From the NCBI GenBank assembly GCA_026026165.1, contig JAPEUD010000028.1:1-64000 (forward strand): DNA of 64,000 nucleotides, given 5' to 3'. A program made the translations under genes and the position numbers. Below the pieces are notes generated by a model. That model worked only from the letters and a program-made list of their open reading frames with translations, made no database searches and was not told the DNA's origin. This stretch comes from Sarea resinae (lineage: Eukaryota). Within the stretch, counting starts at the first letter, position 1, and each line of letters opens with the position of its first letter. Below, one piece after another: positions 126-26,743 of the stretch.

Positions 126-444
126 AAATACCTTAATGTTTACCTTTGAAAACATTAAAGTGAAACCTTTAGCAAATTCAAAGAATATATTGCTAAAGAG
201 GAAAATTAAACACTAAAAAGGCTAAAAATATTTCACTTAGATAATGCTAAGGTCTATAATAACACTGTGTTTAAGAAATTTCATGCTGAAAGAGGCATTA
301 TAGACTCTTATAATGCACTCTATACTACTAACCCCTAAACAAAATAGCTTAGTAGAAAGGATTAATAGAACCTTACTTAATAAAGTTAGAGCCCTACTAA
401 ATCAGGCTAATATCCCTAAAAGATTCTAGAGAGAAGCTACCTTA

Positions 445-1410
445 TAGCTAACTCTAGGATTTCTAACACAGTCTCACAACTGTTGTGACACCTAGTGGAA
501 CCCCTTATAGTGCGAAATTCCTAAACAGTGTTAAAACCATGTTAAGACTGTTACAATACCTACTATAGGTCGTAGGATTACCATTGGTCGCAGAATTACT
601 ATTAGTCGCAGAGGTTCAGAACTACCCTTAGTTGCGACTGACTTTTGCACACCTATAGAAGTTGCAGAAAAAAAGTGGGAAAATTCAGGGAATTTAGCGA
701 AAAAGTAAATTGACTACAGTAGGAATCGATCCTAGAAGCATTGCGTAATCAATAATTAACATTACACTATCTAGGTTATACGACTTGTTAGAAAATCTAG
801 CCCTAGAGTGCTATATAGCCTATAGAAACCATAATTTTATTTTGACATAGAGATTTTCAAAGTTTTAACCACCTATTGTAAGTGAGACGTTCAACAATTT
901 TTGCGTATATTACGTAATTGCTTACATAGTATTTGCAAAAGTCGTTGAACGTCTCAAATATTTTTCAACTTTTACCTACTAGCAAGAAAATTATATTTAT
1001 TTTCACTAAGTCAAAATTGTGTAGCAGAACCTCTAACCTATACACTGTTACAGACCTATAGGTGCACCTAATTAGGTTGCAACACCTTATATAGGTTGCA
1101 ATGCCTTATATAGGTTCAAATCACTAGTAGGTTACAAGAATTTTAAACCCTTAGGCAGTATATATTCCCTGCCTAGTTACAGAACTTCTGAACCACATAC
1201 TGTTACAAACCTATAGGTGTACTAAAGTTGGTTGCAACACCCTATATTGGTTCTGATTAGTAGTAGGTTGCAAAAAATCAACAGGTTTCAAAAATTAGAA
1301 AAGTTCAGCACTATTCTAAAACCTATAGGAGGTTTTAAACACACTGTTACAGTGTTTAGACTGTCTTACAACCGTGTCAGAAATAGTCCTAGGGGCACTT
1401 AAGTATTCTA
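445..1410. mobile_element. Non-coding ~965-bp insertion into the copia integrase (unclassified non-autonomous element)
   Basis: Removing it restores the frame gaa gct acc tta|gct gct ata tac (EATL|AAIY); possible TA duplication at 443-444/1409-1410. It has asymmetric subterminal inverted repeats (tttctaacacagt ~460-472 vs revcomp tttctgacacggt ~1371-1383), short tandem repeats and hairpins. Confidence 0.75.
711..785 (-). pseudogene. Decayed tRNA-like sequence (Pol III A/B box) inside the 445-1410 insertion
   Basis: Minus strand reads agtcgta taacctagatag ... ctagg atcgatt cctac tgtagtca. The B box GATCGATTC fits GWTCRANNC in a T-arm-like stem. The A box and acceptor stem are recoverable only by assuming RIP transitions. 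An oligo-T run follows. Confidence 0.45.
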
Positions 1411-3301
1411 GCTGCTATATACCTCTATAATAGGACCTCTACTACCTCTATAGGCTATAAAACACCCTATAAGCTAAGGTTTAACAAAAAGCCTAACCTA
1501 GACTATATAAAAGTCTAGGGTTCTCTAGCCTATAAGAGAGAGCCTAAGGAACTAATTAAAAAATTAGATAATAGAGCTAAGCCCTATTACCTAATCAACT
1601 ATAGCTTAAATTAATACAAGCTCTTAGACCCTAAAATAGCTAAAACAATCTAGGCTAGAGATGTTAGGATTATAGAAAACACATTCTATGATTCTGCAGA
1701 AGGCTATACCCTTGACCTAGAGGCCTTAGAGGAGCTAGAGAAGGATACATCTAATCTAGAGGATAAAACACCTATAGGTGTTAAGAATTCACCTCCTACA
1801 CCTGCTGTAACAGTATAGGAAGATTATATAACAGTAGAAGATTAAAGTTCTATAGACACTAATAGTGAATCTGATATAGATAAGCTAAGTAGTGAATATT
1901 ATGCAAATATAGCTAGCACCTCTAAGCAGCAACAACACTATGCAAACTTTATGCAAAATTTCATAGTTTATAACAGTCTGTACATAAGAGAGAATCACAC
2001 TGTTACAGACACCTATAGAAGTTCTACAGATGTATCTAATCCTAAGAGCTATAAGGAAGCTCTAAAGTCACTCTATAAAGAGAAGTGGCTAAAATCAATG
2101 CAGAAGGAGCTTACTAAGCTAAAAGAGCTAGGAGTTCTAAAGCTAGTCCCTAGACTTAAAAATGCTAATATAATTAATAGCAGGTAGGTCTATAAAACAA
2201 AGCTAAACTCTAATAATACAATTCACAAAAGGAAATCTAGGTAGGTTGCTAGAGGCTTCCTATAAAAGCAAGGGGTTAACTATATAAAGACCTTTATATA
2301 CACTAGCAATCCTATAGCTATAAAACCACTTCTATTTATAGCTGCTAAACTATAGAAACATATTAGTAGGATATAGCTTCTGTATTTCCTAATGCTAATC
2401 TAGATAATCCTATCTATATAGAGCAGCTAGAGAGTTTTATAGAAGGAAAAGGCAAAGTCTATCTTCTAAACAAAGCTCTATATAGCTTAAAACAAGCTGC
2501 TAGACAGTAGGAAATTTATCTAAAGAATTTACTTATAAAAATAAGTTAAAACAATCTTAGTAGATAGCTCTATCTAGGCTAGTATATAGGTTAGGTTAAA
2601 CAGATTAGAGGCTGTATTTACTAACCCTATATAGGTTTCTAAAGTGAACAGATTATAGATATAAAATCTAATCTAGTAGTAAATCAGGTTAGTTTTTCCT
2701 TAGCACTACTATATATAATCTTAAAATAGCTTACATTTTAATAGAAATATATATAAGTTAGTGTTATAGAATTTACATGTTACAATGTTCTCTAGATTAT
2801 AATTAAAATGATTTACTAGGGTTTACCTCTATTAATTTATTATTAAAAGTAATAACTAATAGTAACACTTATTATAAAGAAAAGATCTATAAACCTATTG
2901 CCTTTATACCTCTTTTACCTCTAAACTCTATAAGAAAAATATATCTATTAAGCGCTATAACTACTTAGTAAACACTATATAACTATTTAGAGTAGACTGC
3001 TAAATTCTCTATTATCTTCTTTACTAATTGCATATATTTCTGCTAGATTATAACTCTATTAGTATAGATAGCTATATTATTAGAGTCTAAAAAGAGTGTT
3101 ACTATATATTATTACTTTAGAACATTAAGCTTAACTTACTATTAAAGAAGCTAGATATATAAAGTTCTATTACTTTTTAAATAGTATTAATAGCAGAGCC
3201 TTAGAAATAAAAAGACTTAGATAGATATAGATTAGTTACTATTTCTTAGACTAAGTAGTAGAATACTATCTTTAGTAATAGAAGTTAGCTGCCTTTTTAA
3301 T

Positions 3302-3472
3302 TATTATAGCATATATATTAGGCTTATTATATTGCCTTTAGGCAACTATAACTATATTGCTTTTACTCTATATTACTTATAGTCTACTATAGATTTGTAT
3401 TTATAGATAATTAGGTATAGCTCTTAAAGAATTAAGCACTTATTTATATATTTTATTCTATATTTTATAGCA
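3302..3472 (+). repeat. 5' LTR of gypsy A
   Basis: Direct repeat of 11850-12020 differing almost entirely by transitions; ends TA(TG)...CA. Confidence 0.92.
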
Positions 3473-6400
3473 TTTAGTATTAATAGCTACACTAGTATTA
3501 GAGATCTCTAACTACACTAGTAGTAAGAGTTTATCTCTTACTACTATTATTACTAGTGCTTAAACAACTATATAAGTTTATATAGGTAAATAGTAATATA
3601 GAATTAACACTACACTACTATAGTGCTTTACCTACTTACTTTACTCTTTATTCTCTACACTAACTCTTATCTTATTCCTTAACTCTTACTCTTTATTTTA
3701 TTTCTTTATCTCTACTAGATTGTTAATTATTAGTGTTATATATTAATAACACACTAATAAGCTAGCTAATCTAAACCTAATTAATCTGATTTTTTTAAAT
3801 AAGGTTATATAACTAGCCTACTATTTACAGTCCTTTATTAATAGATATACTACTATAATAAGAAATGTTAATACTCTAACTATTAAAAATCTGCGTTTTA
3901 TTACACTAGTATACCTAGCACTAGTAGTTATTACACTATATCTCTAGCACTAAGAGTAGAATTAAAGTTCCTATTACAATTCTATTTGCTAATTTAATTC
4001 TAACGCAGACTAACTATAGAAGAAGTAATAGTAAGCTACTAACCTTAATTCTAACTACTTTATATAATAAGTGTAACTAAATCTATTAACTTATTTCTAA
4101 TTAATAGATAAAGCACTTTGCTAAATAAATATCACACTCTTAATACATTAAGACCTTTTTATTCACTTTTATTTAGCGTTAATAACTGTGTTTAGCAACT
4201 AGATTTTATTATACAGTCCTAACCTAAGGAATGCTACTTAGTAATAAAAGAGATTAACTATCTTAAACTTTATAATAAAGGTAAAAGTAAATAGCCTTTC
4301 TACTAAAGTATATATTCTAACGCCTAAGCTAGACTATTTAGACTAACCTAAGAATACTCTAGCTTTACTAATTGCTAGATAACTACTCTCTAGGCTATAA
4401 TCTAAGAAGCTATATCCTAGAGAAACAGTAACTATTATAATAGCTACACTTCTAACTAAATAGAGGTCTTATATTAATAAGCTAAGAGCCTTAAACAATG
4501 TAAGTCCTATTAGCTATAATACCTATCTAATAATAAAGACCTATATAATAATAATTATAAAGATACTAAGGTTAATAATAAACCTAATAACTATTAGTAT
4601 TCTAATATAGTAGGACTTTTTAACCTAGATCTAGACCTAGCTTATAGTATTAGAGATATTATCTAAGTAGGCGCTTAAACTTACTTTTAGAATATACAAC
4701 TCTTTATTAAAAGTGTTAGAGATATTGCTTCTACTAAAGAGCCTTGTATTATCTAATACAACTTAAATAAGTGCCTTTATAGCACTACTTAGAACTAGTA
4801 CATTAGAGTCCTCTCTTTTACTAAGTAATAAGTGCTTAAAGATAGAAGTAGTATTAAGTAGTAGACTAACACTCTCTTTAAATAGTTTAAAGACTTATAC
4901 TTTAAAGCTATAACTGCACTTAAAGATAAAAAATACACTGTAAATAATATACACTAAGGATAAGACGCTAGTAAATACATTATAAGAGTTATACACTATA
5001 TAAAATCTGCTAAAGTGTTATCTATATTAGTGTAATTAACTATAGTATAGATATAGATAGATCTTTATTTACACTCTAATATCTCTAAGCTAAAAGAATA
5101 TACAATTATAGAGTTGTTTATTAAAAGCATTAATAATATAAAAGAAGTTTAAAAGGATAAGTATATTAACTATTGCTTTACTATATAGTAATAGACATTG
5201 TACTAGCCTTAATAGAACTAAAGTAACTTCTACTAACTATACCTAACTTCTAATTAAGGCAACTAATACTAGAAGGCTTATAACAATTAGATAATATTCT
5301 TAAACTAGGACGCTTATTAAAGAAACACTAATAATAAAGGATTACCTATACTAAGGCAGCCTTTACAACTAATAAGTAAGAATAACTATAGTAGTTTCTT
5401 CTAATAAGAGAACTATAGCAATCGCAGCTGTAGCAATATATACAGAGGCTATAGGAATAATAACTATAACTAACACTATCTAATAAACCTATATTAGTAG
5501 TAAGATCTACACTAATAATAGGACCTATATTAGTAACAAGATATATAATAATAATAAGACCTATATTAGTAATAGATAATAACTAGCTAATAAAATCAGA
5601 ACAAATAGAGCTATATACTATAAAACTATAACTAGTAACTATATAGCTAGTAGTAATAGTATAGATAGAGGTAAGCTACTTATTATAGTTCTAAGACTTA
5701 ATTAGACTAAGATAACTAGAGATTAAACTAAGAAGTTAATTAGCTCTAGCCTAATACAGACCCTAATATAGACTATAGTAATAATATAGAATACATTAAA
5801 TAAGACAATCTATAAGAAGCAAATTATATATAAGAAACATAGGATAATTAATACAACCTACCTAACTAAGTATAAGCTAATCTAGTTAATATATAGATCA
5901 CTTATAGACGTTGTTAGAAGACGTTTCTATTAAAAAATAAGCTTTATAAGCACCTCTACACAAATAACTATAAAGCAACTATTGCTAAAGAATGCGTTTT
6001 AACTAACACTGCTTTACTATATATCTCTATTTGTTTTAAAGCTTAGTCTATAAGTCCTATAACAAATAGATATACATTTAGGCCCTATAAATATACTATT
6101 ATATCTGCTAGACTAGGCTCTAACACTTCTAACGCTAATCTCTATATTAACTCTAGTTATACTATATTATTAGTAGATAGGTCTTTCTTTTAAGAGCAAC
6201 TTCTAAACATAGTAATCTAGTATATAGCAATACTAATTTATATCTATAGTATTAGTCCTAAAGCTTATTACTTTAATAAGTATATAATAGTAGATATACA
6301 CCTTAATAGTAAAGCACATAACAGATTAGACGCTATAGCTATACTTATATAAGAACTCTACCTAGTTAATAGTTTATATATAAACGTATTAATTAGCGTT

Positions 6401-9400
6401 AATATTATTACTCTAGAGAAGATAATACTTAATTTCTTTAACTCTAAGCTTATTATAAATAGTTGTAACAATATCTGCGTTCTAATAAAGATTAACACTA
6501 AATTAACTTAGTAAGTAAATAGAATTATCTAGTTATACAACTAATTTGTAATACTACCTAAGATATATATAATAATTCTAATTGCGCTCTAAGGTAAAGA
6601 AAAGTTGCTAGCAGACTATAATATAATCTTTTAACCTAAATTTAACAGCCTTACCTAATTCTATAACTATATAGTTAACACTAATATCTCTTTTATATAA
6701 GTGTATAACCTAACTAATAGTGTCATTATAATTTAGCGTTATATAAGACTAGGTATAGTTACTAAATATAAAGAAGAAGAATGCTATTACACTAACCTTA
6801 GTAACTACTATATAGCCTAGCAAATCTATAAAACTAAGAAGACTATAATAAAATCTATTTTAGAACATCTACTTCTTAATAGCGTTATAATTTAAGGATG
6901 TAGCAATATATTAGATATACTTACCTGCGTTATATAATTGTATCTAGAACTATAGACAGACTATAGCTAAACAATTAACGTCTCTTAGAACTAAGAAATA
7001 CATATTTTATTAATTAAAGGATAGGAAATAAAGACTAAAATACTTATAAAAGTCTACCTACTTAGTTCTTAAGACTAAATAGTAGTTAATAACACGTTTA
7101 ATAAGCTGTATATATAAAGAAAGATAAACTAGACTATATAACTAATGCTATTTAGATTCTCTATATTTGTAGTATAGTAAAAGGTTATAATAAATAGAGT
7201 TATATAAGAGAAAAGTCGCGTTATTATAGATATATATACACTAAACTAAATTATATAAAAAGACTCTTATCTAGTTCTACTTTAGTTAGATATTACTATA
7301 GTAGTTTAAGGCGCTAGTTTTATTACTATTATAGATACAATCTTAATGTTCTACTAGTTTAGAGTTAATAAATGTAACTAATATAAGTTGTTAGTTAATA
7401 TATATAGAGGCTAGGAATTTTTTCGTGTTACTCTAATAGGACACTGCAGATTAGTTTAGTATACCTAACAACAAATTAATTATATCTTACACTTATTTAA
7501 ACAGTTTGCTAAAGGCTATATTAATAATATAGTTATTTATTTAATTACATTAGATAAACATATTAACTATCTCTACTAGGTTTTTTACCTTCTTTATTCC
7601 TTAGGATTTTCTTTAGCACTAACTAAATCCTTTATTAGATTCCTAAGTATTATTCTTTTAGAATAATATATTAATGCCTTAGGACTAACAACAAATAAAG
7701 AGAAACTTATAGCAATTACAGATCTTATATTTCTTAACACTCTCTAAGCACTAGAAAAATACCTAGGACTTATAAGGTAGATAAGGTAGTATATTCCTTA
7801 CTACTTATCTATAGCAGAACTACTTAAGAATAAGAAGATAGAACTACTTTATAGCAAGCTAATTAAAGGAAACACATGCAGAACGTTTTCTACTAAGACT
7901 ACTCTAGTTAATCCTACTAAACGCGAGTTTCTATTATACACTATACTCTAATAAGCCTTTTCTAAACCAACGTTTTTTATCTACTACAAACTTAAACGCT
8001 AATTCTATGCTAATATTAACGCGTTTAAAAAACAAGTTAGTATTATTATATACTATATTAAAGGCGAAAAAGAACTATTTAGCTGTAACAACATTAAGCT
8101 AATTATATTCTTAAGCAAACGTTGTTCTATTACTAAAAGCCACTACTAGCTAACTAAATCTAAAGTCGCTGCGTTAGTTTTTATTGTTTGTAAAATCTAA
8201 CACCTTATTAAAGCGTCTAAGAAACCTACTATTATTTTTATAGATCACTTAGCTATAGTATAAACTGTTAAACAAACTTCTTTATTATTATTAAATATAA
8301 ACAAGTTAAATCTGCAGCTTATCTAAGCATTACAATATCTATTACAATTTAGACTTAACGTTTATTATAAACTAGGCAAACAATATATAGTACTAGATAG
8401 CCTTTCCTAACTTAAATATATAGGTAAGAAAAACAAACTAGAAGATCTAGAAGAACTAGATAATATTAACGTGTATATATACTTTGTTACACTAGTAGAA
8501 ATATCTTAAGACTTCTAATTAAAACTCTAGTAAGGTTATAAGACTAACTCTTACTAGAAGAAGATAAAGACTAACCTAGTAGAAAACCTAACTAAAGTTA
8601 ATGTTTTAGATATAAGGCTGTATTACTTATAGGACAAAATAATCTATTACTATAGAGATTATAGTGACTAACTCTGTATTCTTAAATCGCTTAAGAAAGA
8701 GATTTTTAAACTTATATATAATAGGTATTCCTATACTAGCTTCTACTACATGTTCTACTACCTTATATCTTTAGTCTATATTATCTAGATAGCTAAACAA
8801 CTCTAGATATATATCTACTATTATTAACAATATGCAGTTAATTAAACTAAATGCTATAGCCTATATAGTTTGTTGTATCTTATTATTACATTGTCTATTC
8901 TATTCTATATAATAACAATAGATTTTATCCTTGTATTACTACAAATAAATAAAGAGTATAATATAGTTCTAATAATTACAGATAAATTTACTAAATGTAT
9001 AACTCTTATACTAGGAAAATCAACCTTTAATGCTATTAACTAGGTAGAATACATAGTTAATAGACTATTAATTATAGACTAAGGCCTCTCTAGTGCTATA
9101 ATCTCTAACAAAGATCTAAAATTTATGTCTATGTTTTAGAAGGCTATGTTTTAGCGCCTAGGTATAAAAATCCTTGCTAGTATAGCTTACTATATATAGA
9201 TAGATAGTTAGAGTAAGCAGACTAATTAAACTATTAAGATAGCCCTTTGTTTTAGCCTAACTAGGTTAATATACAAGGCCTAATAGATTAAGCTATTACT
9301 GCTTATCTAAGCTAATATAAATAATAGTGTAAACTTATCTACTAGTAAAACCTCTAATAAGATAATATATAGCTTTTGTATTAGCAAAGGCAATCTTAAT

Positions 9401-11849
9401 ATTAAACTAATAAATAAGAGAACTAATTTCACTAAAGAGCGCGACGTCTTATAAAAGGATATAGCTAATATAATATTATACGCTAATATAGTTGCTAAAT
9501 TGCGTTATAATTCTTCCTATATAGAACTTAACTTAAAAGTTAGTAATAAGGCGTTCTTAAGACTCTATAAGAGATATATAATCCTAGGTCTATCTAATAA
9601 GAAACTATTATAGCAGCGTGTTAGTCTTTTTATAATAAAGAGAAAAGTAAGAGTATTAGTATATAAATAATTTCTCTCTTATATTTAAGATCTATCTAGT
9701 TATCTTAGTTACTTAACTAGAACCTACTCTAACTATAAATAACTCTAAAATAATAAATTGTACTAGATAATAATAATCTACCTCTTATAGAAGATATTAA
9801 TAATAATGCTTCTCTTTTTAAAATAGAAGCACTTCTTAATTAGCAAGCTATTTAATCTAGATATAAGTTAAAGGGTAAGATATAATACCTTATTAAATAG
9901 AGGAGTTATAGAAATAAGTTTAACGTTTAGTACAACCTAAATAACCTTAAGAATGTATCTAAACTTATCTGCATATATAATAATAAGTATAGTCTGTTCT
10001 TACAACTAAAGATAGTTGTATATTTAGCATAATATAATTATAACACTTAGGTATTTACCTTTCCTTTATTTAAAACTTCTTTGTTTAGATTTTACATTTA
10101 CTAATACTCTAGCTTACTTATAGTAAAGCATGCTTATATTTTATTACAACCTCTTTATTAACCTTTTAGGATTCCTTTTATTAAGATTATTATTATATTG
10201 TTTGCTGTAATAGTATCTTAGAACTCTATTAGATTCCTTATTTAATAGGATACACTCTTACCTTAATCTTATAGCAGAATATAGGCAGAAGCAGATTGTA
10301 ATAGCTAACCTATTTTAAAGACTAATTATAAGCTTACCTAACTATTAAGGCATTCTAGGATATACTTATAACAATTAAAAACTATACACTTAATACATTA
10401 TACCTAATAAAGTAATAGGAGTTATACTACTACACTATATTTATCTCTTAGATAACGCTATTATAGCACTTATAAGGATAAAGTTTAAACAAAATATATT
10501 AGTAAGGTTCTAGCCTATAGACTTCTAAGACAATAGAAACATTAAGCTTAAGAACTAACTTTCTATAGACCTACTAGTAAAGCGTTATAAGAACAGTGTT
10601 TAGTTCTATAAAACCTTCTGCAATATAGTAGCTTTAGTTAGAAATAAAGGATATATAGAAAGATATTCTATATAAAGAAAGTAATTAAAGTATCTTAAGG
10701 GCTAAAAGTTATATAACCTTATCCTAGATATAACACAACTATATTTAGTATAGTCTAGTATAGATATTAACTTATATAACTAGTTAGCATATCTTAATAG
10801 GCCTTTTACTATACTAGAACAAGTTGCAATTACTACTCTAAATATAATAGCACTTATACTAACTATACTAGCCTTATTTGTATTAACTGTATTAGCCTTA
10901 CTTATAACTACTCTAACTACAATTGCTTTTAACCTAGTTATAGTAATATCTTCTACTACTCTAGCTGCGATTTTTAAACGAGAAAATTATTCTTTAGAGG
11001 CTATTAATAAATAAAGAACTAAGGTAGTAAAGAAATACAATATCTACACACTTAATTATAATAGCGTTATATCTTATATTGCTAAAGACTTAAAGTATAG
11101 ATAGATAGATTTATCTAATAATACAACTAACTAGGTAGACCTATTAACTATTAAAAACAAATGCTTTAGTATTAACTCTAGTCTATATAAGAACAAATAG
11201 CCTAAGATAGTAAACAAGCTAATTGTTAGCAGCAATAATCTAAACAGTAAAAGTAAAGAGAAATAAGTATAGCAAGCTACTACTAAGCGCTTAACGCCTA
11301 TAAAGATATAATAAGTCTATTATAATATTAAGCTCTTAATACTAATAAAAAAAAGATAGAAGGCACTACTATTACACTATATAAGTATTTTAAGAATAGC
11401 ATTATTAAACGCTCTTTAGCTAGTCCTAATGTTTGCGATTTAGCGCGATAACTAGATAAAGCTAAGGCAACTATTATAAGTCTTATTATATTAAACGTAT
11501 ATCTTTGCTATTATTTCTAAAAATCAGCTAATCTAAATATAGACAAGCTAGATAAGATCTGCAACGCTATTATAACTTACTAGAAGACCTTATTATTAGC
11601 AAACACTACGCTTAAAAACTGCACTATTTACTTAGACTAACTTATAGATTGCACTAAAAAGACTGTAAATAAGAATAATAAAGAGGTATAAACAATTATC
11701 TACTTTATTCTATAGCAGTATAAGAGAATATTATTTAGCGTGTAATTAGAAGGCTAAGTAACAAACATTATTAATAATATTGCTAAGAAAAACAACAACT
11801 AGTAGTAATTAAATAAAGGTGTTAGTCTTTTTATTAAAAGAGAGGCAAT

Positions 11850-12020
11850 TGTTATAGCATATGTATTAGGCTTATTATATCACTTTTAGGCAACTATAGC
11901 TGCGTTGCTTTTACTCTATATTACTTATAGTCTACTATAGATCTATATTTATAGACAATTAAGTATAGCCTTTAAAGAATTAAGCACTTATTTATATATA
12001 TTATCCTATGTTTTATAGTA
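11850..12020 (+). repeat. 3' LTR of gypsy A
   Basis: Starts TGTTATAGCA after a polypurine tract and is followed by the TSD TTAAT. Confidence 0.92.
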
Positions 12021-12395
12021 TTAATAGTATTTTATCTAATAAAGCGCGCTTACTAGAAGACATTGTATTACTAATATATATTACTATAGAATAGTAGATA
12101 AAGAACTTACTACTTAGTTTAGTCTTTCTATAGACATTATTTATTACTAGCTTAGCTATAGTAAAAGCTTTATTCTTAGCTAAGGTATTATAATACTACT
12201 TATTCTATTTCTTATAGCGTTTATTAAAGCTCTTATAGTATTTATCTTATCTACTCTAATATAACTTTATAACCTTAGAGAGAGTAGGATGTTTAAAGTT
12301 ATAGCGCTTTATATATTACTTAGTGCGCTCTATAATTGCTGTTTAAGTAAGAGTTAGTTACTATATTCTATTACTATTAAAAAGACTTATATAGA

Positions 12396-12516
12396 GTAGA
12401 CTTAATAATAATAATAAGACTTAATAATAATAATAAGACTTAGTAATAATAATAAGACTTAAGGATAATAATAAGACTTAATAATAATAATAATAAGACT
12501 TAATAATAGTATAAGA
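12396..12516. repeat. Minisatellite (agactt-aataataataata)n within a decayed minus-strand ORF of the outer element
   Basis: About six 18-21-bp units, each starting agactta. The unit lengths are multiples of 3, consistent with a former coding low-complexity repeat. Confidence 0.75.
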
Positions 12517-15500
12517 TCTATAAAATAAATAAGTATTACTAGATACTATTATCTTATAATCTTAGATTATAACTTACCTAACTTTAGAGAATAGTAAGGT
12601 AAAGTAGAATTAATAGCTCTAATTAAGTAGGTATACACATGCTAGTTACCTTTCTAAGTTACTAGCTAGGATATTAAAGAAGTATAATAATCTAAAGAAA
12701 ACTTATAGAGGTATAATAGCTAGAGAATAGAGGTAGTAAAGTAGAGGTGTATAGGTAGTAAGAGAAAAAGTAAGCACTTAGATATATAGGTAAGTAGAAG
12801 TGTAGTAGTATAGTATACTATATACACTAGTAGTGCAACTCTATATAAGGATTAAGTTTTAGCATAAAAATTATTAAACATCTTAAATATAGTGAATGTA
12901 AAAAACAGTGAATATAAAAAACAATAAATGTAAGAAACAATAAATATAGTATATACTATAGAGTTATATAACTTTTAAAGCATTATACTTATAGCTTTTA
13001 ACTTCTTTCTTCTTTAACTTTCTTATTTCTTCTCTTAACTTACTACTTACTACTTACTACTTCTTCTATCTCTTTTACTATTAATTTTTTCACTAATTAT
13101 CTATAAACTTAATTTCTATCCTCTCTAGACATTGCACTATATAATAGTAATAGCATATAGTAACTAAGAATAAAAGTCTATACTATATTAGCTGAAATTT
13201 AGTTTTAGAAAAGAATAGCTAATTTTTCTACTAAAACTCTTTAGAAGAGCACACTTTTATTACCTTAGTAAGTTCTACTATTATATAATATAATAGTAAC
13301 TATAGATAGTAACTAATACTTAAGTTAAACGAAATTCAGATACAGATTCTTAATCTAATAAAGATTATTAATCTAATCTAATAATCTTAATCTAATTAAA
13401 TAATCTTAATCTAATCTAATAATCTTAATTTAATAAGACTTAAGATATCTAGGAAAGAGATTAAGATAGAAAAGGTAACACTTATTAGTAATAGCTTTAT
13501 ATAGAGCACTTACTAACTCTAATAGAATAATAATATAATAGATATAATTATAGACACTAAAATAGATAAGGAGACTACTATAGTATTAGCTAAATATAAT
13601 GCTAGGTTCTCTATATAAAAAGTAATAGTCTTTAGTAATGCTTTTAACTATATAACTAACTTATCTTAGAAACAATATAGGCTATATAAGAAGAGTAATA
13701 AAGATAAAATTAAGGTGTAAAAGGACTATAGCTAGTACTCTACTAAGGCTTTTACTTCTTATACTTAGAATATAAAGTCTTAGATAACTTTAGATAAGCT
13801 AACACTAATAAGGGCTAGAGTAGCAGACTAAAAAGCTAAATGTAATGCTAAGGTTGCTTTACTTAAAACAGCTACCTATTAAAAGGCTAGTAAAGATAAG
13901 AAGACTTAGATACTAATTAAGCGCTTTAAACTATTAGAAGAGAAGAGATATAAAGAGAAAAGATCTTTAGTATAGATTAAGTCTAAGATTATAGCTAGAT
14001 TAAATAAAGAGAAGTAGAAAGCTAAAGAGAAATTTAATAAAATAGCTAAGGCTAGGCTAGCTAATAGAGTCTTAGAGCTAAGCTAAAAAGTAACTGATTT
14101 TAGTAATGCTTTTTTAATTATATAACGCTAATAAAATTACAGACACTCTCTTTAAAGACTAATAATAAAGGAGGAATAGCAGATGCTTTATATAAGTATA
14201 TAGCCTCTTTTATCTGCAAATAAGAGCAAGAGATCTACACTACTTTCTAGACTAGAATCTTAATAGCTACCTAGCTCTAAAAATATAAAAATAAAGCTTT
14301 AGCGCTTTCTAGCTAATTATAAATATCCTAAGGTTCTTTTAAACTCTAGAGATATAATAGATTCTAAGAGTAAGGCCTTATTAGTTAGCAGCAATAATAT
14401 TAAGGTAGTAATTAGTAATAATAGAGTTACTCTAAAGAAAGAAAGTAATAATAGTTTTATTAATAAGTTAGATATAGAGAATAATAACAAACTAAACAAT
14501 ATTAATAAAGAAGATAAAGAGAGACTAGCTAGTAGCTTATCTAATGTAGCTATAGATAATTAAGGGGTTACTAAATTACATTACTTTTCTTAGATAATTA
14601 GTAGTAGCTTTTATTAGTAATAAGGGCTTAGGGGTTACTAAAATGCATTACTAGTCTAAGACAGATATTAGTAGCTTTTATAGCTTTTTAACTATATAAT
14701 TAGAGAATAGATTATAAACTCTTATTATTAATATACCTCTTTAATCCTAAGTAGTGTGTGTATACTAAGTTGCTTTACTTTCTTTAGTAACCTTTTACTA
14801 TACTAAAACAAGCACTAAGTAGAAGTAGTAAAACACTAATAATATATCTCTTATTATAACTAGTATTATTTGTAGTTTAGTCTCTTTCTTAGCTAGTAGG
14901 TCTGTTTTAATAGCCTAATATTAGTATTATACTACTTATACTTTACATTTACTATTACTAATTATTATTACTTTACTTAACTCCTATACTAGCCTTCTTT
15001 TTACACGTTATTAGAGAGCTAATTACAGCTAGCTATATAGTTTAACGTGTTTTGTTTGTGTTTTTACTCCTCTATATATACTTATAATATAGTCTCTTTA
15101 TAATAGTGTCTATATATTGTTATACTAGCCTCTATATCTAAGTTATATAATAGCAACTATAACTTTAAGCTAAAAGAGCTTAGCTTTCTCTACCTCTAGT
15201 ACAATTAGCTAGGAGTTAGACCTACTATTAGATATATACTCTTAATTCTATTTAAGTAATAACAATTAGTAATACAGATTAGAGTCTCTACTCTCTAAGA
15301 GAGTTAAGGCCTTTATTACACTTAGTTACACTTCTTATTATTGCTATATTATCTTTAATAGCAATAAGTTAGCTACATTTTTTACCTAGTAGACTAATAT
15401 AAAATATAGTGCTAATTTTACACGATTTAAGAATCTACTATAGGATTTAATATAGAGATATAGCAGATACTAGGAATATTTTAACTAATATATAAAAAGC

Positions 15501-17391
15501 GATAATAGATAACTAGCTGTCTGCTACAAACTATATAGCTTTATCTTAAAGCATCTATTAATAAAGAACACTAGAATATTAGTACTAAAAAACTACCTTA
15601 TAATATAGCAATGTATAAAGAAAAAGCAGTTAAGTGTATAGATAACACTTAAGATAAGTCTCTAAGTATATATTGTCTCTAATATTATAACAACAAATAG
15701 TAACACACTTTCTCTAAAAACAGTAGAAGACTTCTACTTAAGATAATCTTCTTATATTTACTTAAGGCTAATAGAAAGAACAACTTCTAAATATAGTTAT
15801 TAATCTAAATCTACTATTCTATACTATAGAGAATACTTAGTTCTAAAGGACATTATATATACTTTATCCTATTCTCTATATCTAAAGGCAGTTTGTAATT
15901 TAAAGTATATATCTCTAATTATATTTGTAATATTAAGGCAGCCTTTTTAAAAGACCTTAGTCTAATAGCAAAGGTTTCTATTACTCTAGATTGCTAGATA
16001 TTACTAAATAATCTTTTATTTATAGCAATAATAGAATACTATATCTCTTCTAACTAGTCTTACTATAAAGTGCTACTTAGTTTTAAGTATATAACTAGGT
16101 AGTATATAAAGTAACGCTTTATAGAGATAGTCTATAGTGTTCTATAGCAATACAAACTTTAGGTAAGTTCTAGTGCATTATTAAAGAATAGTGCTTATAT
16201 AATCTTAGAGGCGTTTGCTTAGCCTTACTACAAATAATACTGCAAATAATAGTATATTAAAAACAGCTCTTTATAATATCCTCTTTAAAAAAGAGGATTT
16301 TAACTAGAACCTAGCTATATCTGTTGTTCTATATATAGCATATGTTATTTAACTTGTTATAACTACACTTCTTAAGTTACTCTTAGTAATTATAACAAAC
16401 AATATAGCTATAATAATGTAAGAGGAAATAGAGCTTAGAGATATAACTAATAGTGTTATTACATTTAGTAATACACTCTAGAAAGTACTTCTATAGTAAC
16501 TATAGATAGTAACGCTCTTACTTATATATATCTTTAGGTCTACTAAATCACTATTACTATCTAGGTATTACCTTAGCGCCTTAAAAGGTTTCTTAATATC
16601 TAAGGTAATAAAGCCTTACATTCTATTTAAGATGTTTGCACTTAATAGAACTTAATATTTAATATGCTTACCTATACTCTAGTACTATAACATGCAATTA
16701 ATAAGCTAGTTTAAAGCAAAGAATTATCTTAAATTACTAAAAAGCTTTAATTAAATAACACTAAGTAGAAGTAGGTAGAGTATCTAATTACTATTCTATA
16801 ACTATTTAAGGTGTAGACTAAAGCCTTTTCTGCAACTAGTAGAGTTACAATTTATCTTACTTAGTTTATATATAGAAAACTCTTTAATTACCTTAAGTCT
16901 TAAAAGGCTTAGCTTCTTAAGAAAGATATTCTATAGAAATAAGGCTTAAGTAAAGTAATTAAGGCTTTACTATCTTACCTAAGCAAATACTATAGTGCGA
17001 CAGCAGATAGTAGTAAAGAGCTATATAGTCTTACTTATATTCTAAACCTAAAGTAAAAACTTAATACATATAAAGTAATACTATCTTATAACACTTATAG
17101 TAATATTACTAACTTCTCTCTTCTACTCTTTTAGAGTCTAGACTAGAGCGCAACTTATATAAAAAAGTATTAGCAATAGTTTCTATAGTATTACAAAGCT
17201 AACTACTAGAAATTTAAGAGTAGCACTCTATATATTACTCTAACACTAACACCTCTTTATCTAACTCTTAATTTACTTGCTTTTATAGATTAGTAGAAGT
17301 CTATATTACAGAATATAAAACTTACTAAGGCTATAAGATACCTTTCTATACTTATCTCTTCTACTACTTATTAAACACTACTTAAAGTAAG

Positions 17392-17543
17392 TGTAATATT
17401 AGGTGTAACAAGTCTGTATTACTAACTATTACTTAAGCAACTACTATATAGGAATGCACTAGCTATAGTAACTCTGCTATCGCTATCGCTATACTATACT
17501 GTAACTAGTTATACTGTAATTAGTCCTGCTAAACACTCTAACA
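17392..17543 (-). repeat. 3' LTR of gypsy B
   Basis: TGTAATATT...CTCTAACA; direct repeat of 24506-24657. Confidence 0.92.
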
Positions 17544-20500
17544 CTTAGCTTATAGAAGAAAAGCTATTGTCTTTAATAGCGTTAAATATAGTAGAATAAG
17601 AAATATAGCATAATGCTATAGGTATAAATATAGAATTTGTAGCAATTAGATTTGTATAAGCTTGTTGTAAAGTTAGTACTATATAGATACAATTTTATTA
17701 GGAGCAATTAGTTTTTATTAAAACAGTTTTATTAAAATAAGTTTAGTAAAAGGGATTTATAGAGAGCGGTTTATCGCCTCTAACACTGTTAAAATTCTTC
17801 TAGTATATCTAGAGCATTCTTAAAGGCGTACTCCTATTCCTATATAGCGTCTTATATAGGCTATCTATACTACTTAGTAAGAAACTGTTTATAGTAAGTG
17901 TTACTATATCTAACTATCTTACTTTAGATAATACATTTAACTTTCTATTTGCAATAATTGTCCTAGTTATAGCTGATTCCTTTAACTAGTCTAGAGCGTG
18001 CTAGTTCCTTGTTGAATTTGTCTTTATCTAGGCTAGAGGCTAGTTCTAGGTGTGCTGTAGAAATAACTAGGTGAATATAGAATCCTTCTAGTAATTTAAG
18101 ATATAGTGTAAGGCCTTTGCTAACTTTCTTAATGATTTGTAAAGGTCTAACTTGCTACACAACTAGTTTAGCTTTTCTAACTAATAGGAGTGTATAAGCT
18201 TTATAGAGGTGTAGCATTGCTTTACTAGAGTTAAAATTTAGTTCTATATAATAGAGATTATACAACCTTGCTATTGCTTGTTTTACTAGGGCTATAGCAG
18301 CGACTGCGTTGTAGCAGGCTATTTTGTGTTACTTAATATAGGATTATAAGAGTTGCAGTTGCGTTCTAGCTTAGAGAGCGTTGCCTAGGACGTTATACAA
18401 TTAGCAGATAGTTATTCTAAACAGGATTTTATTTAGCGCACGCTTAGTTGTATTAGCATAGGTATTATTAATATGCTTCTTAATTGTAGCAAGCGTGTTA
18501 CTCTAGTTCTCTTGCTAATTGTTAATGTAGTACTAGAGAGCGATCTTAAGTATCTAGTTTATTTGTTCTACTAGTCTATTAGCTAATAAGTAGTATATAG
18601 TTGTCGCTATTATATAGGTTCTAGCTTGTTAAAAGAGATAGGTCTAGAACTTGCTAAGAAACTAATAGTCCTAGTTAGTTATTATTACAGCAGGAAATCT
18701 CTAGTCCTTTTTTACCTGCTAGATAAACGACTTAGCCTAGTCCTTTACATTCTAGTCCTTTTGTCCTAGTAGAAAGTGTATAGCGTGTGAGAAACAATTA
18801 ACTACAGTTATAATAGTATTAAATTTAGCGTTACTATAAGTATAAATCTAGTATTTAAGTAAGTTAGTAACTAGGTCTAGATAAATAGTATAAAACAAGA
18901 TTTCTAGAGAATTAATTAGGCGAAGGTCTATAAACAAGCGATACTATACAGGCTAGTTTGTTATACATTTAAGATATAACACGATATAGTGATTAATGCT
19001 ATAACCTATAGATTTCTACTAATACTAGGCTACAAGTTTTATGTATATCTAGAGCAGCCTATAATATAACTAGGAATTATATACTAGTTAAAGAAGTTCT
19101 TTCTATATTAATTGCAGTATTACAAGGTGTAGTTGTTTGTTAGACAAGTTAATAAAGTATAGTAAGCTGTTATAGAGAGCGAATTAGCTTAGAGAGCTTT
19201 GTTACTAGTTATCTTAATTAATTTAACTATGTTATAGAAGGTAGTTACAAATCTTTTAGAGGTGATTGTTATCTTTAACACCTTAGCGCAGTTTGTTTTT
19301 ATATTTATTAGTTGCGTCTAGTAAAGTTACAAGCCTAGTAAAGTCGCGTTTATTTAATACTATTAATTCTTAGTATTCCTTAAGGCGCTTAGCAAGCCTA
19401 TTAGCATTGTGTTAATAGCGAGATAGTATGTCTAGAACGATTATATTATAGCCTTCTTTATAGATAATAGATAGGCGATCCTAGTACTAACTAAGGAAGA
19501 CAGCAGTATTAGTAAGTCTTATGTTTATCTTTGCTAGACTAGTTGTCTATAACAATTATATCTTAGAGATTGCCTTATTTGCTTAGTGATTAGTAATAAC
19601 TATTATATATAAGGCTTACTTAATAAACAAAATTGTCTTATAGACAGCCTATACTAAGGCAGTTATTTCTAAATTTATAGGCTAATAATATAACTCTAGG
19701 TCCTATAACTCTCTACTTAGGAATAAGATTAGTTATAAGTGAGTTAGTTTTAGGATTCCTAAACAGTTTGTCTTCTTATTATTATTAATCAAATTAATTA
19801 CCTAGTATATAGCGACTCTAAATCCCTACTTATAGGATGTATTAATAAAGATAAATAGCTGTTTAACTAGGTTAAAGTAGGCGAGTATTAGTCCTAATAT
19901 AAACGCATTGTATAGGTCTTTAAGAGACGCTTATTCTAACTTAGTAAATTAAAATCGATTGCAAGCAGCTATTAATTTGCAGGCACTGCCTTTAGTTTGT
20001 AGCAAGGTTTAGAGAAGTTTCTTCTTTAGTTAGGTTAACAGACTACTTCTTTATATATAGAACAGAATAAGGTAGCAATGCTATCTAGTGACACTAGTAA
20101 ATTGCTCTAGCGATTTAAGTAAGAATAGAGCTAGAAGCTTAGCTATTACCTCTACCTAGGCAGCTATAGTTGTAAGTCTAAGTTGATTTACTACTATTCT
20201 AAGTAATTTAATAGATTAGAACCTAAGGTAGGTTTTATAAGCCTTTAACGTTATACCTCTATTAGATAACAGCTGTATTGTTTTGTCTAAGTGAAATAAG
20301 TGTTTGCAGAATGTGTTTGAAAAAACAATGATATTATTAATATAGAAGGCAATAAATCTCTAGTTTATACCCTTAAAGATTTAATCTATTAACTGTTACT
20401 AGTGTGTGACACTGTTCTTATTACCTATTACTATTACTAAAATTTGTTTAAGTCTTTAATGTGTTGTTATTGCAGTATAATAGTAGTTGTCTAGATAAAT

Positions 20501-23500
20501 CAGTCTCTAGTAGTATATAGACATAGTATTAAGGCACGCTATATATAATTTGTTTGCTACTACTACTATAACGCGTTCTAACTAGAGAAGCAAGTATATA
20601 TCTGCTAGTTAGATCTTATTTAGCAGCCTTATATTAACTATAGCTTAATTTTTATAGGGTCTAAAGACTATAAAGACCTAGGCTATATAAGAGGAATAAG
20701 GGCTAGAGTGCAGCCTTTCTATATTAAGTAGAGGCTTAAATGTAGCGTTAATAATATTGTAGCCTCTTAGTGCTAGGTTAATTAGTAGTCTTAGTTTTAT
20801 CTTAGCCTTAAGCGTTAGGTCTACTAAGATCTGTATCTACTTAGACTTAGGCTTGCAAATTAGGCCTAATTAGTTATTAAAGAGTTGATTATAATAAGAG
20901 TATAAGGTGTAGAGCGCTTCTTTCTGCTAATCAGCTAGTTTAGAGTTTAAATTAACTTCTGTATAGGTAGTTGTAGTAATATCTAGAAAGATTATTCTGC
21001 TTAGGACTCTGTACTAATAGTTTAGTTTGTAGTGATTGTTTAGCTATATAAACTTAGAGTTAAATAAAACTAGCTTTAGTAATTTAAAGGCTTATATAGC
21101 GAGACTACTAGCTGCTATAGCGATTCTAGTTTAAACAGCAGCCTTAACTAATACTACGTTTAAAATGTTCTTAGCCTAACTAATAGCAATATCTTTAGCC
21201 TAATTAACACAATTAACAGTTGCGTCTTTAATTTAATTAATAGCGTGTTTAATGTTACTAAAGAATGCCTAACTAGTCTAAGCAATTCTAAAGAAACCTT
21301 AAAGTTCCTTAGATACCTACGCCTATATTAATACTATTTTATTGCTGCAAAGGCTTTAGACTGTTCTTATAACCTAGTTCTAGTAAATTAAATAGGAATA
21401 ATCTCTAAAGTTAGTAAAGTATACTTATGCTTAATCTGCTAAGACAATGCCTTTAGCTGCACAAGCAATAGCGCTAAAAGCAGTATTAGTAGAAACAAAC
21501 TTATAGTCTTATTATATATTAAGTGACTTCTTTATCTTAACTAGAATTGCTATAGTAGTCCTTAGAGAAACAATAGTAGTTAAGGCAGCCTAAACTAGTA
21601 CTTGTTTAAAGAATCTAGTCTAGTATACTCTAGTAAGAATGACTATATCCTTATATATATGTATAGTGACTGCCTAATGTTATAGATTAGCTATAATACC
21701 CTCTGCATATATAGTGTCTGTTCTAATAAGTATATCTGTACCTAGATTTAGTATAATAAAGTAAGAGCAGCAAATCTTAGCAACCTTAGTTTTAGCGTTA
21801 TAAAGGTAGAGTGTAAAAACAACTTGTTAAAAGACGTTCTAAACGCTGCTACTAACGCTCTAGATATAGGCTAGAGTTAGTAGAAGGAATGTCTACACTT
21901 ATAGATTAGTAGTAATAGCGTTGTAAAAACGTTTGTTAACACTAGAATTGCTAAAGCTAGTGTCTATAACAATAGACTTAAGAGGACCTTTAAGGTGTAG
22001 TATAGATCTATTAACCTCTAGGAACTTATAAGCAATAAGGTTATAAGTAGAGACTTGCTTAATAGATATAGTAGTAGAGCAAACAATTGTTTTTAGTTTA
22101 GGAATCTTCTTTTTATTAAAGTAGCCTAATTGTCTAAGATAAGTAAAGAGGCAATTATAAGTAGTAAAACTCTTATTACAGCTTTAGTAGTTAAACTCTA
22201 GCATAAAGGCAGCAAATACAGTGTTATACACCTCTTAGGCCTCTTTATCTTCTTTAATACTATAATCTATAAGGAACTCTTTTTAGAAGAGGACTTTATT
22301 GTTATTGTTGTTGCGCAAGTTATTCTAATAACTAGATTCTAGTGTTATTACTTCTTAGTTGTCTGATTCTTTATTATAAGGTGTATTATTACTATTAGTA
22401 ATACTATAGTACATATGTTTCTAGTTCTGTAGTAGAGTAAGACAATTAGGATCCTAATACTAACTATACTTTCTCTTATAGTAATAATAGGCTTAGAAAT
22501 TCTTACTAGCTTTAATTGCCTTAGAAATAGGCAGTAGCTAGCGCTTTTATCTATATAAAGTTTAGCAATCTTATAGTTCTTTCTTTATAAACAGCGTAGC
22601 TAAGCGACCTTAGAATGTATAGAGCTAATCTAATTAGTTTAGATATAGTAGTTATTAAGCGTTCTACTAGTCCTAATATAGAGCACGCTTAGTTAATCGC
22701 AGCAGAGGTTAATTAATAACAGGTTTATACGTTTTAATTAGGTTCTCTTTACACTTATTTAGTTCCTATATATACTTATTAAGTTTGCTAGCTTTTGCTT
22801 CTGCTTTAAGACTAAGTCGAATTTCTAATAAGAAACCTTTCTACATGCAAGCAATAAGTTTAGCTTTGTTAGAGTAGCCTACTATATACAGCATACAGAT
22901 TTTTATTAAGATATAAGCGCTTAGTTAACAGCTCTAATACTAGGTAAAGTGTTTCTTTCCTATGTTAATACGCATTGTATATTCTAATTAAAAGAACTTA
23001 GACTTAATATTTATAATCTAGGCTGTTATAGATTTAAGCATAATAGCTTTCTAGTTATTTATAAGACTAAAATACTATTCTTAAGCGACGTTATTAGCTA
23101 GGTAGTAGCGTAGAGTTATTAGGACTCTATCTTTACTATAGTAGCGTTTAGCGTCTAGAATACTCTTAATAAATAATTGGCTAGCTAATAGGTCTAGAGA
23201 GCCTGTATAAGCGAATTAACTGTTTACTTCTAGTTTTAGGTCACGATTTTTGTTACAGTGCTTGTAGAGTTAGCAGATCTCTTCTAGTGTAGCTATTAAT
23301 ATCTGCTAGTTGTTCTAGTTAGTAAAGATAAGTTAAGTAAGAATCGCGTTCTAGTTAGGCTGCCTGCTAAGAGCTTGCTGTCTGCTATTAAATCTGATTC
23401 TACTATTATTAGCACTACCTTAGTTACTTATTGTTAGATCTATGTCTAAGCGTTTAATTAGGTCTGCTTCTAGTATAAAGTGTCCTCTCTTATCTTAGAG

Positions 23501-24505
23501 AAAGTATAGAAACAGATTAATATATAGACTTATAAGAAGCGATTAAGCTAAAGATAATTAGGCTGTAAACAGTTAAGCTAATAGCTCTGTGACTAATATC
23601 TTAATCTAATTAGGATCTAAGTTAGATAGATTAACAGTACTTAGTAATAATAACAGCTGCTACTACAGTTAATATTCTTACTACTAAGCTTCTAATATAA
23701 ACTTACCTTTAAGATAATAGTGTAGAGCTGTATTAGTGTAGGCCTAGAGGCCTAGTTATAACTCGCTCTATTAGTTAGAGTAGAAGTAAAATAAGAACAA
23801 GTTAATTGTTAACTTATAATAAGTAAGAGTAATAGTTAAATAGTAGAACACTAATTAGCAAAAGATTAATCAATGTAGAAGCAGTTAAGATATAACAAGT
23901 AAAGTTAACAATTAGATTAGTAAAAGAAAAGACTAAAGAAAGATAGAAATTAATTGTTTATTAGAGATATTATAATATAATCACTTGCTTACTACCTTAA
24001 TACTATAGGAAGGAGTTAAGTTTGTGTTAATATCTTAGGTCTAACTAATAGATTAGAAGGTGCTAAATTAAGAGTGTTATAAGTAAGTAGAGAAAGAAGG
24101 CTCTAATATTAACGTGTTAGTTAAACAGAAATCAATAATATTAGACCTAATAGTAGAGGTAAGAATAAGGTTAGTCTAACTAGCAAATAACAAAACTAAA
24201 AAACAATAGGACTAAGAAACTAGGACTAAGAATAAGAAACTAGGACTAAGAAACAATAAAACTAAACAATAAAACTAATAGATTAGCTTTATAGTTAATA
24301 GAATCGCGTTCTAATAGTGTAGCAATTGTAAAGATACACTAACTCTAGCTAATAAGGCGACTAGTGTAAACGCAGTCCTAAATACTAACTAGTAGTAAAC
24401 TAATTCAGTGATTAAAAAGGTTTAGTTCTTATAGAATCACTAGTAAGAGTTAGTTTACTCTCTTATAAAGATATAATCTTAGCTAGCTTTGCTATTAATA
24501 CTAAG

Positions 24506-24657
24506 TGTAATATTAGGTGTAATAGGTTTGTATTACTAACTATTACTTAAGCAACTACTATATAGGAATGCACTAGCTATAGTAACTCTACTATTACTAT
24601 TGCTATATTATACTACAACTAGTTATACTGTAATTAGTCTTACTAAGCACTCTAATA
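24506..24657 (-). repeat. 5' LTR of gypsy B
   Basis: Direct repeat of 17392-17543. On the minus strand it is followed by the PBS-like cttagtattaatagc. Confidence 0.92.
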
Positions 24658-26743
24658 GTAAGTAATAAAATATTATAACGCTCTAAACTTACTAACTTAT
24701 AATTAGTCCTAGTAATACTCTATAGTTAAACTTCTAATTATTAAGTAAGTAGTAAGAGATATTCTAGCAGCTCTAGTCTTAATAGTTAGAGTTAAGCAAT
24801 GCTTTAATATTGTATATAATATTGTTTACTATTACTAAAGCAACTTAAACCCTAATACAATTTAGAGCCTAATAATAATTTGCTACTATAAACGCTATAT
24901 CTTCTTATAGCAGAGTCTAATAAAGAATATAAGTGCTAATAAGATAAAGAATACCTTTAATAGTAAAAATTATAATAGTAAGGTTACTAAGAGTTGCTAT
25001 ATTAGTAAAGAGAAAGATAGTAGTAAGTAAGAGTAGCTTAAGCCTATCTAAAAAACATTAAGGTAAAGAACACTATATTATATCTAATATAGTACTTCTA
25101 TCTCTAAGACTTATAACTCTTTATATAACCTAAGCTTATTAGAGAATAAATTAGGTTCTTAAGTAAGTAGTTAGAAGACTATACTAGATATAAGTAGATA
25201 AGACACTAATTCTAGTTAAGTAAACCTCTTATATAATTTAGATCTAGCTACTATTAAGATTATATCTATATTTCTATTAGAATACACTATCTACTATATA
25301 GTAGAAAAGTAACCTTATTACTATTACCTCTATTTTCTTATATTACTTATACTTTTATTATTGCCTTTTATTATTACCTAAGGTGCTATAACTATATATT
25401 ATTTAATTAGTATCTATAGACCTTTAGTTATATATTAGATTATAATAGATTACTTAGGTTAGGTTAACTATTATTCTACTAACACACTATTAGTTAATAG
25501 GTTACTAGACTAGCCTTATCTAGTCTATAAGCCTTATCTATAGAACTATTAGATTAATATATCTAGTTAGAGTAACTACCTTAGCTCTATCTATATTAAA
25601 GAAGATATAATAATTACTATATATAGATAATATTTTACTATTTAGTAAATCAGCTAATAGTATAAATAGTCTCTATTTAAGACCTCTTTAAGCACCTAGA
25701 GATCTCTAATCTAAAGGCTATAAAATTCTATCTAAGGATAGAAATCTTTAGAGATAGGCTTAATAAAAAGATTATCCTAAATTAAAAGGCTTTTATCACT
25801 AATTTATTAATAAAATTCAACAGATTAGGCCTAAAGCCTATAATAACACCTTCTAAAGGTAGTGTAAAGTTAGATAGAAACAGTCTATAAGTAAACTCTA
25901 AAGATATTAAACAATATTAAAGAGAAATAAGTAGTCTAATCTACCTAACTATTATTTCTAGACCTAATCTAGCCTATATAGTAAATCTATATGCTAGATT
26001 TATGCAAAATCCTAGCTAGTAGTTGTATTTTAAATCTCTAGATAGGATCTAGCAATACCTTATTTATATAAAGGACTATAGTCTTATCTATTAGTCTATA
26101 TAAATCACAATAAAAAGGCCTAAAACTCTAAGGTTATTGCAATTCAGACTAGAGAAGAGATTATAGCAGAAGATCTACAACAAGCTATGTTTTTCTACTA
26201 GATAATAATATATCTTCCTAGAATTCTAAACTGCAAAAAACAATTGCCTTAAGCTCTTATAAAGCAGAATACATAGCCTTAAAAGAGACTATAAAAGAGG
26301 ATTTATATATAAATTCTCTAATTAAGTAAATCCTCTTGCTAAAAGACAATATTAGCATAGAGGATTCTAAGGCTATATACACTGACAGCCTTTCTGCTAT
26401 AGAACTCGCAAAAAACCCAATGTTTTATTAAAAAACAAAGCATATTGATATACAATATCACTTTGTTAGAGACAACTATCAAAAGAATATAATTCACCTG
26501 AATTATATACCTACAGCTAGTCAACTAGCAGATGGCTTTACTAAGCCACTTAGCACTCAAAAGTGGCTAGAAGTCCTAAAGGCTATTCAGATACAGCCTA
26601 CACCTAAAGGACAAACAAGTTCTATAGGTGTAAGTTCTATAGGTGCATAAAAATGCGTACCTATAGCAACTGTTATAAAAAGCCAAGTTCTATAGGTGTT
26701 CTAAATTGCATACCTATCCTATAGAATTAAGCTTAAGGGGGTG

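Follow-up and report, generated by a model that had tools for sequence, protein, structure and literature searches.

A dead three-gene hAT transposon carrying a histone H3-like gene, nested in a copia element of Sarea resinae

Ordinary fungal hAT transposons (Restless, Tfo1, the Ac/Hermes superfamily) create an 8-bp target-site duplication, end in short terminal inverted repeats (TIRs) and encode a DDE transposase with a C-terminal dimerisation region; we know of none with a histone-like gene or with the additional central open reading frame (ORF) discussed here. Histone-carrying hATs have been described in Dothideomycetes. Manning et al. 2013 (PMC3538342) reported in Pyrenophora tritici-repentis (Ptr) a 5.6-kb element comprising a transposase, a central ORF and a histone H3-like gene (H3L), for which they suggested drift, and Dhillon et al. 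2019 (PMC6710886) reported ~9.5-kb hATs with H3-like copies and 8-bp duplications, killed through repeat-induced point mutation (RIP), in six Mycosphaerellaceae. The latter study takes the H3-like copies as intronless retrocopies and calls the Ptr case recent and independent. We analysed a 64,000-nucleotide stretch of the Sareomycete Sarea resinae (assembly GCA_026026165.1, contig JAPEUD010000028.1, positions 1 to 64,000; hereafter the window), in which an earlier, sequence-only reading had noticed an unclassified ~7-kb mobile element. With a probability of roughly 0.9, this element, hereafter family A, is a dead, RIP-killed, three-gene, histone-carrying hAT cut-and-paste transposon.

The outline drawn by the sequence-only reading, namely a single ~7-kb three-gene element that has common termini, sits in a copia retrotransposon and is split by two gypsies, is borne out. 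The reverse transcriptase (RT) reading of the copia continues across the flanking repeat of the element (RVT_2 matches at 2137-2561), and the two long terminal repeat (LTR) elements within it (Table 1) each have their 5-bp duplication, with LTR pairs that are 89% and 88% identical. The order of nesting is copia first, hAT next and gypsies last. Removal of both LTR elements leaves 7,014 bp, and an uninterrupted copy elsewhere in the genome (C115), which shares its ends and has an 8-bp duplication of its own, matches the element over 7,003 bp at 92%, while a gypsy-free copy (C108) is co-linear with it at 91%. The genome also holds other long copies or pieces (C101, C62, C133, C63 and C107) and ~490-bp elements built from the two ends (C1, C2, C139 and C57; C92 has a partial one), all family A copy counts being lower bounds. 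With two LTR elements interrupting the window copy and further inserts present in others, one might suspect several unrelated insertions only resembling one element, but the C115 copy refutes this explanation, to which we give practically no weight. Copies differ from one another almost entirely by transitions (465:48, 531:46 and 327:6), as expected from RIP, and every family A copy read is RIP-damaged.

Alignment of the ends across copies revises the size of the target-site duplication. The exact 12-mer reported at 2565-2576 and 25582-25593 is present, and together with the weak TIR and a nearly silent Pfam it speaks for a gene-carrying element of a new class that lacks a TIR and makes a duplication of 12 bp. 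However, the copies show a duplication of 8 bp, identical at 8/8 positions in eight of nine two-ended ones (C62 fails, with 2/8). TA is fixed at both termini in all copies aligned, except for TG in the C2 copy, and the outer TA matches seen in the window are not common to most other copies. The 12-mer is thus the 8-bp duplication plus the terminal dinucleotides of the element and two chance TA matches, which sets the true bounds at 2575-25583. The end alignment refutes the 12-bp class, and a plus-strand hAT transposase and known relatives also stand against it, leaving it extremely improbable. A TIR, of which no convincing trace had been noticed, exists as a 9-bp imperfect repeat with one mismatch and one RIP-compatible difference in the best copies. 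The 13-mer noticed near both ends does occur there, in direct orientation, and is a predicted transposase binding site. Related subfamilies are represented by fragments with 69-78% identity to family A at C62:192.9-194.3k (L079) and C54:81.6-82.1k (L081); the former adjoins the right end of the C62 family A copy and may explain the missing duplication of that copy.

The former exclusion of hAT rested on the mis-sized duplication; with an 8-bp duplication, a short TIR and a hAT transposase, the element matches a known family, the hATs carrying histone H3-like genes. A profile of six public transposases, found via a less damaged relative from the same genome, matches the window on the plus strand only and in order, at 15965-16159 (E 6e-7), 16206-16487 (E 1.6e-5), 16541-17074 (E 1.3e-18) and 24737-24988 (E 0.076), and its reversed-frame control gave no match. 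Five of the nine public transposase matches carry PF05699, the named ones being from Penicillium and Pyrenophora. In family A itself, PF05699 appears in one of three copies (C108, E 0.021, below the cut-off) and gives no match on the window copy; the family A dimerisation region aligns (E 1e-8 to 1e-6) to regions passing the PF05699 cut-off in family B, a second H3L-hAT of the same genome. Two catalytic Asp positions are readable by eye in family A. The 5' transposase exons, in which an N-terminal BED zinc finger would be expected, are heavily damaged. The long ORF had been called on the minus strand, probably because the RT of gypsy B (20033-20677) runs on that strand, whereas all hAT-profile matches in the window are on the plus strand.

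Other classes fit less well, and the view that the element is not an LTR element, LINE (long interspersed nuclear element), Tc1 or MULE (Mutator-like element) holds. It has no LTRs or poly-A tail, and all three ORFs are otherwise assigned, which rules out a LINE or an LTR retroelement; an RT search found none in the element, but the same search also missed the gypsies of the window. A MULE is ruled out by the duplication of 8 bp rather than 9-11 bp and by the hAT profile of the transposase. KDZ/Zisupton elements also create 8-bp duplications, but the hAT profile accounts for the long ORF, and Pfam gave no match to a KDZ transposase domain, a search of low sensitivity on RIP-damaged frames.

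The left ORF, which had been predicted on the minus strand across gypsy A, is H3L, and the splice donor expected near 3135 was found at 3139. On the C108 copy, H3L gives weak PF00125 matches (E 1.2e-4; 26.6 bits, just above the cut-off). When all donor-acceptor pairs were searched and scored against host H3, an intron at the codon matching H3 D106 was obtained in eight of nine H3L regions and one at T45 in six of nine. Neither was obtained in a C13 fragment. The splice search picked another site in the window copy and in one C60 copy, although the T45 donor and acceptor of the window copy are visible by eye. The introns of host H3 are at R8, G44 and Q120, and the tested stretch of CenH3 contains one at V71. 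H3L is neither the canonical H3 nor CenH3, both of which lie elsewhere, as its sequence is divergent and its introns differ. Both introns recur in the H3L of two metagenome loci (L085 and L087) and, by eye, in those of Ptr and Cercospora and in the second Pseudocercospora copy, with one RIP-altered donor (PMC6710886 supplement 2). Among the 31 H3 intron sites listed by Yun and Nishida 2011 (PMC3029354), none is at T45 according to a hand count that could be off by one. Between intact relatives, H3L has a nonsynonymous divergence (dN) of 0.34 against a synonymous divergence (dS) of 3.6 over 152 codons; here and below, these are rough Nei-Gojobori values near saturation. No candidates came from a word-based search of proteins that used the H3L exon of family B. 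Further divergent H3-like genes were seen at C60:225511, C60:235724 and C13:140750 (L056, L057 and L063), both C60 ones with the D106 intron, and are possibly more H3L-hAT families.

The central ORF, divergent from H3L on the plus strand as had been proposed, is conserved beyond Sarea. A profile of 17 non-Sarea proteins matches the window at 13793-14044 (E 4.6e-7) and nowhere else in it, and also matches family B; the best hit of the reversed control had E 0.96. The Ptr protein P0008, judged by its sequence, appears to fit the chimera described in PMC3538342, with the central ORF's N-terminus joined to the C-terminus of the transposase. Its N-terminus matches the family B central ORF with E 0.003. 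A profile built from A, B and P0008 retrieved 29 representatives, those with a species name coming from Pyrenophora (three species), Alternaria, Boeremia, Lojkania and Wetmoreana, the last of which we take to be a Lecanoromycete (lichen fungus). Between intact relatives, dN is 0.47-0.56 against dS from 1.7 to saturated, and the protein ends in an acidic stretch. An AlphaFold model of one relative (8-row alignment; predicted local distance difference test, pLDDT, 64.8; predicted template modelling score, pTM, 0.26) has long helices at 77-185, and Foldseek matched it to nothing in the PDB at E <=0.001. Pfam on four central-ORF proteins gave only PhoD, below the cut-off in two and taken as chance, the ESM Atlas returned no usable match with the family B central ORF, and a word-based protein search with the latter found its own record only among 434 candidates. 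The spacer between H3L and the central ORF, without similarity among intact relatives, is likely a shared promoter region; in the window it contains 19-bp tandem repeats of varying copy number (12379-12511 and 13374-13430).

Family B, ~7.5 kb in length, has its own TIR and the same three-gene layout, with 8-bp duplications read by eye in four copies and a transposase ~33% identical to that of family A. Its copies (C56:199.1-206.6k and 212.9-220.4k, C79, C82, C60, C124 and C13; L072-L078 and L102) are less RIP-damaged than those of family A; their H3L tail has ~105 residues, and a ~430-bp internal inverted repeat lies between H3L and the central ORF. A metagenome scan reduced 361 candidates to five loci, and a divergent H3L is present at all three with enough left flank, L084 and L085 being one element; L085 additionally holds a transposase and both ends. 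In the 10 kb retrieved for an unrelated hAT at C70:104047 (L080), no H3-like gene is present.

The closest described system is the Ptr element. As in family A, its H3L is divergent from the central ORF and the transposase follows in the same order and orientation, the central ORF is homologous, H3L introns lie at T45 and D106, and GGGTT-type subterminal repeats and non-autonomous derivatives are found; by eye, the H3L-side end of the Ptr consensus is identical at 20 of 22 positions to the first 22 nt of copy C139 (PMC6710886 supplement 2). The two nevertheless differ in size (7.0 kb for family A vs 5.6 kb for Ptr), state (dead by RIP vs largely intact), TIR (9-bp imperfect vs long and near-perfect), derivatives (gene-less ~490-bp elements vs a 2.3-kb chimera) and host class (Sareomycetes vs Dothideomycetes). 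Moreover, their transposases are ~30% identical, and the H3L of family A is much more divergent and has a longer tail. The Mycosphaerellaceae hATs (PMC6710886) share with family A the 8-bp duplication, the RIP-inactivated H3-like copies and an intact host H3, but are ~9.5 kb long, occur in hundreds of copies and have an 18-20-bp TIR and one or two H3-like copies; the available portion of that paper does not mention a central ORF for them. In a literature search that mostly did not cover subscription journals, we found no paper treating H3L-hATs as one lineage or reporting them outside Dothideomycetes.

Shared introns, a conserved central ORF, shared termini and a dN far below dS together point to one old lineage maintaining a histone variant, and we consider it well supported, though inferred, that H3L and the central ORF belong to the core gene set of this three-gene hAT lineage. 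The published alternative is an independent, passive capture of host H3 in each fungal lineage ('transduplication'; stated in PMC6710886), with copies drifting without function (as suggested in PMC3538342), and it could draw on the wide differences between the H3L tails of the families, the limited resolution of the transposase tree and one intronless H3-like copy in the Pseudocercospora consensus. It would, however, have to account for two shared introns missing from host H3, a homologous central ORF at the same place, a terminus near-identical to that of Ptr, the low dN relative to dS and an identity to host H3 of only 36 of 88 aligned residues, and we regard it as quite improbable. The shared layout could also reflect a more recent horizontal spread between classes instead of long vertical descent, for which the 20/22 identical terminus and the patchy distribution of central-ORF matches would speak; but the transposases of A, B and Ptr are only ~30-35% identical, and even Pyrenophora-like relatives are close to saturation at synonymous sites, making such a recent spread unlikely. 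Old horizontal transfers between classes are possible.

Several observations weigh against the hAT assignment or the single old lineage. The TIR of family A has only 9 bp and is imperfect, vs at least 20 bp in relatives; Pfam on 12 whole family A frames found no family in 11 and a weak histone match in the other; and the third catalytic residue (Glu) was not seen in any family A copy, with a RIP-type change at that place in the copies read. The transposase tree, built from 11 rows of which those of family A deviate in composition, does not group the H3L-bearing elements (support of deep nodes 51/53). The 17-protein profile of the central ORF is partly circular, as its members were first found via a Sarea-containing profile, and the central ORFs of families A and B have no pairwise match (BLASTP E 0.44; hhalign probability 0.4%). 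The first Pseudocercospora H3-like copy looks intronless by eye (PMC6710886 supplement 2), and, by hand count, the H3 intron site nearest to D106, found in basidiomycetes only, is about one codon downstream (PMC3029354).

From established hAT knowledge, the plus-strand transposase would bind the short TIRs and the subterminal GGGTT-type repeats and excise the element, and insertion would proceed via an 8-bp staggered cut, the chemistry being taken from other hATs and the duplication itself from the copies. Family A also mobilised its ~490-bp deletion derivatives, and the window copy landed in the copia RT, received the two gypsies and was inactivated by RIP. Judging from the layout, H3L and the central ORF would be transcribed head-to-head; they probably descended together with the transposase and were retained through selection acting on the element. 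More tentatively, H3L may be a variant histone whose altered tail changes the packaging or silencing of the element, with the central protein (basic helix and acidic tail) helping to handle it.

The insertion sites of family A show a pattern of their own. Among 15 further sites or single ends of family A, 13 are flanked within 300 nt by sequence matching the copia family of the window or its nested TIR element (11 strong and two weak matches, at different positions). No such flank was found at the five family B sites or in 230 AT-rich control pieces (Fisher p 0.001-0.008), the control pieces having been drawn from other repeat regions rather than from a random genome sample, and some family A ends possibly sharing one copy. 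The copia has ~14 internal copies and ~45 LTR-sized matches (lower bounds), and its nests lie at the borders of AT-rich blocks. Insertions surviving in the repeats then available thus explain the pattern without targeting, and nested growth from a seed copia accounts for the border position of the nests, for which a centromere idea had been considered. Solo LTRs of the same copia were also seen inside two family A copies (C108 and C57).

Table 1 Coordinates of the features in the window
Feature	Position	Strand	Remark
Whole hAT element, family A	2575..25583	.	7.0 kb without the two gypsies; co-linear with C115 and C108 copies; ends fixed across copies
8-bp target-site duplication, left, GCTCTATC	2567..2574	+	8/8 match in 8/9 two-ended copies
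8-bp target-site duplication, right	25584..25591	+	
Left TIR	2575..2583	+	(T/C)AGG(C/G)TGGC in less mutated copies
Right TIR, imperfect	25575..25583	-	
Subterminal motif (13-mer)	2587..2599	+	RIP-worn form of the GGGTT repeats lining the ends of Ptr and metagenome relatives
Subterminal motif, second copy	25455..25467	+	Direct orientation
H3L exon 1	12111..12333	-	RIP-altered start codon (read by eye); long divergent N-terminal tail of ~75 residues
H3L intron 1, 58 nt	12053..12110	-	Phase 1, codon matching H3 T45; splice search on C108 and C115, window copy by eye
H3L exon 2, part before gypsy A	12026..12052	-	
H3L exon 2, part after gypsy A	3140..3301	-	Histone fold helices 1-2; PF00125 E 0.048 on C108 copy
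H3L intron 2, 53 nt	3087..3139	-	Phase 1, codon matching H3 D106
H3L exon 3	2983..3086	-	Loop 2, helix 3; PF00125 on C108 copy; end uncertain, as the stop may be RIP-made
Central ORF	13445..14563	+	Divergent from H3L; conserved helical block ~13793-14044
hAT transposase, 5' exons	15200..17386	+	Start approximate; catalytic core 15965-17074
Transposase last exon, hAT dimerisation region	24716..25030	+	Profile E 0.076
Gypsy A	3302..12020	+	Nested in H3L exon 2; 5-bp duplication TTAAT
Gypsy B	17392..24657	-	At donor of last transposase intron; 5-bp duplication GTAAG
Host copia, 5' part	137..2566	+	TIR element nested inside, 455-1392
Host copia, 3' part and LTR	25592..27200	+	

Concerning the surrounding elements, gypsy A has a co-linear match to an RT-bearing pol ORF, with the RT at 7211-7837 and more matches up to 9667, while gypsy B has an RT-region match on the minus strand (20033-20677, E 1e-9); the gypsy label is weaker for B than for A. 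In the C101 copy, the small transposase intron where gypsy B lies in the window contains a ~160-bp solo LTR (L004:5887-6045). That gypsy B is shared with this copy was rejected, as the solo LTR is a different one, ~20 bp away. The ~940-bp TIR-bounded element inside the copia (455-1392), with a 74-bp hairpin at 883-956, is multicopy in the genome and unclassified. The first 136 nt of the window are a piece of copia LTR, inverted relative to the LTR at 26733 and 96% identical, probably a further nested LTR that is truncated where the contig begins. Ordinary genes (27649-49381) start ~450 bp past the copia LTR and include, named by eye, a RAD2/XPG-like gene, a PPZ-type phosphatase-like gene and a Fab1-like kinase.

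Taken alone, the element is a dead representative of an already described kind, in a fungal class for which our literature search found no report. What changes is the interpretation: hAT-borne H3-like genes would be an old, selected feature, as opposed to the separate and partly recent captures that have been published. A tentative extension is that an ancient hAT lineage, present at least in Dothideomycetes and Sareomycetes, might encode a two-part chromatin module, made of a variant H3 and a dedicated partner of no known family, that would remodel nucleosomes on the element or its targets, either evading silencing or directing insertion towards repeats already present. The near-exclusive landing of family A in one copia family would fit such a module. 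If true, this would be a transposon-encoded histone system rather than passive gene capture, and whether transposons encode histones to manage host chromatin is directly testable, since intact relatives exist (e.g. L085).

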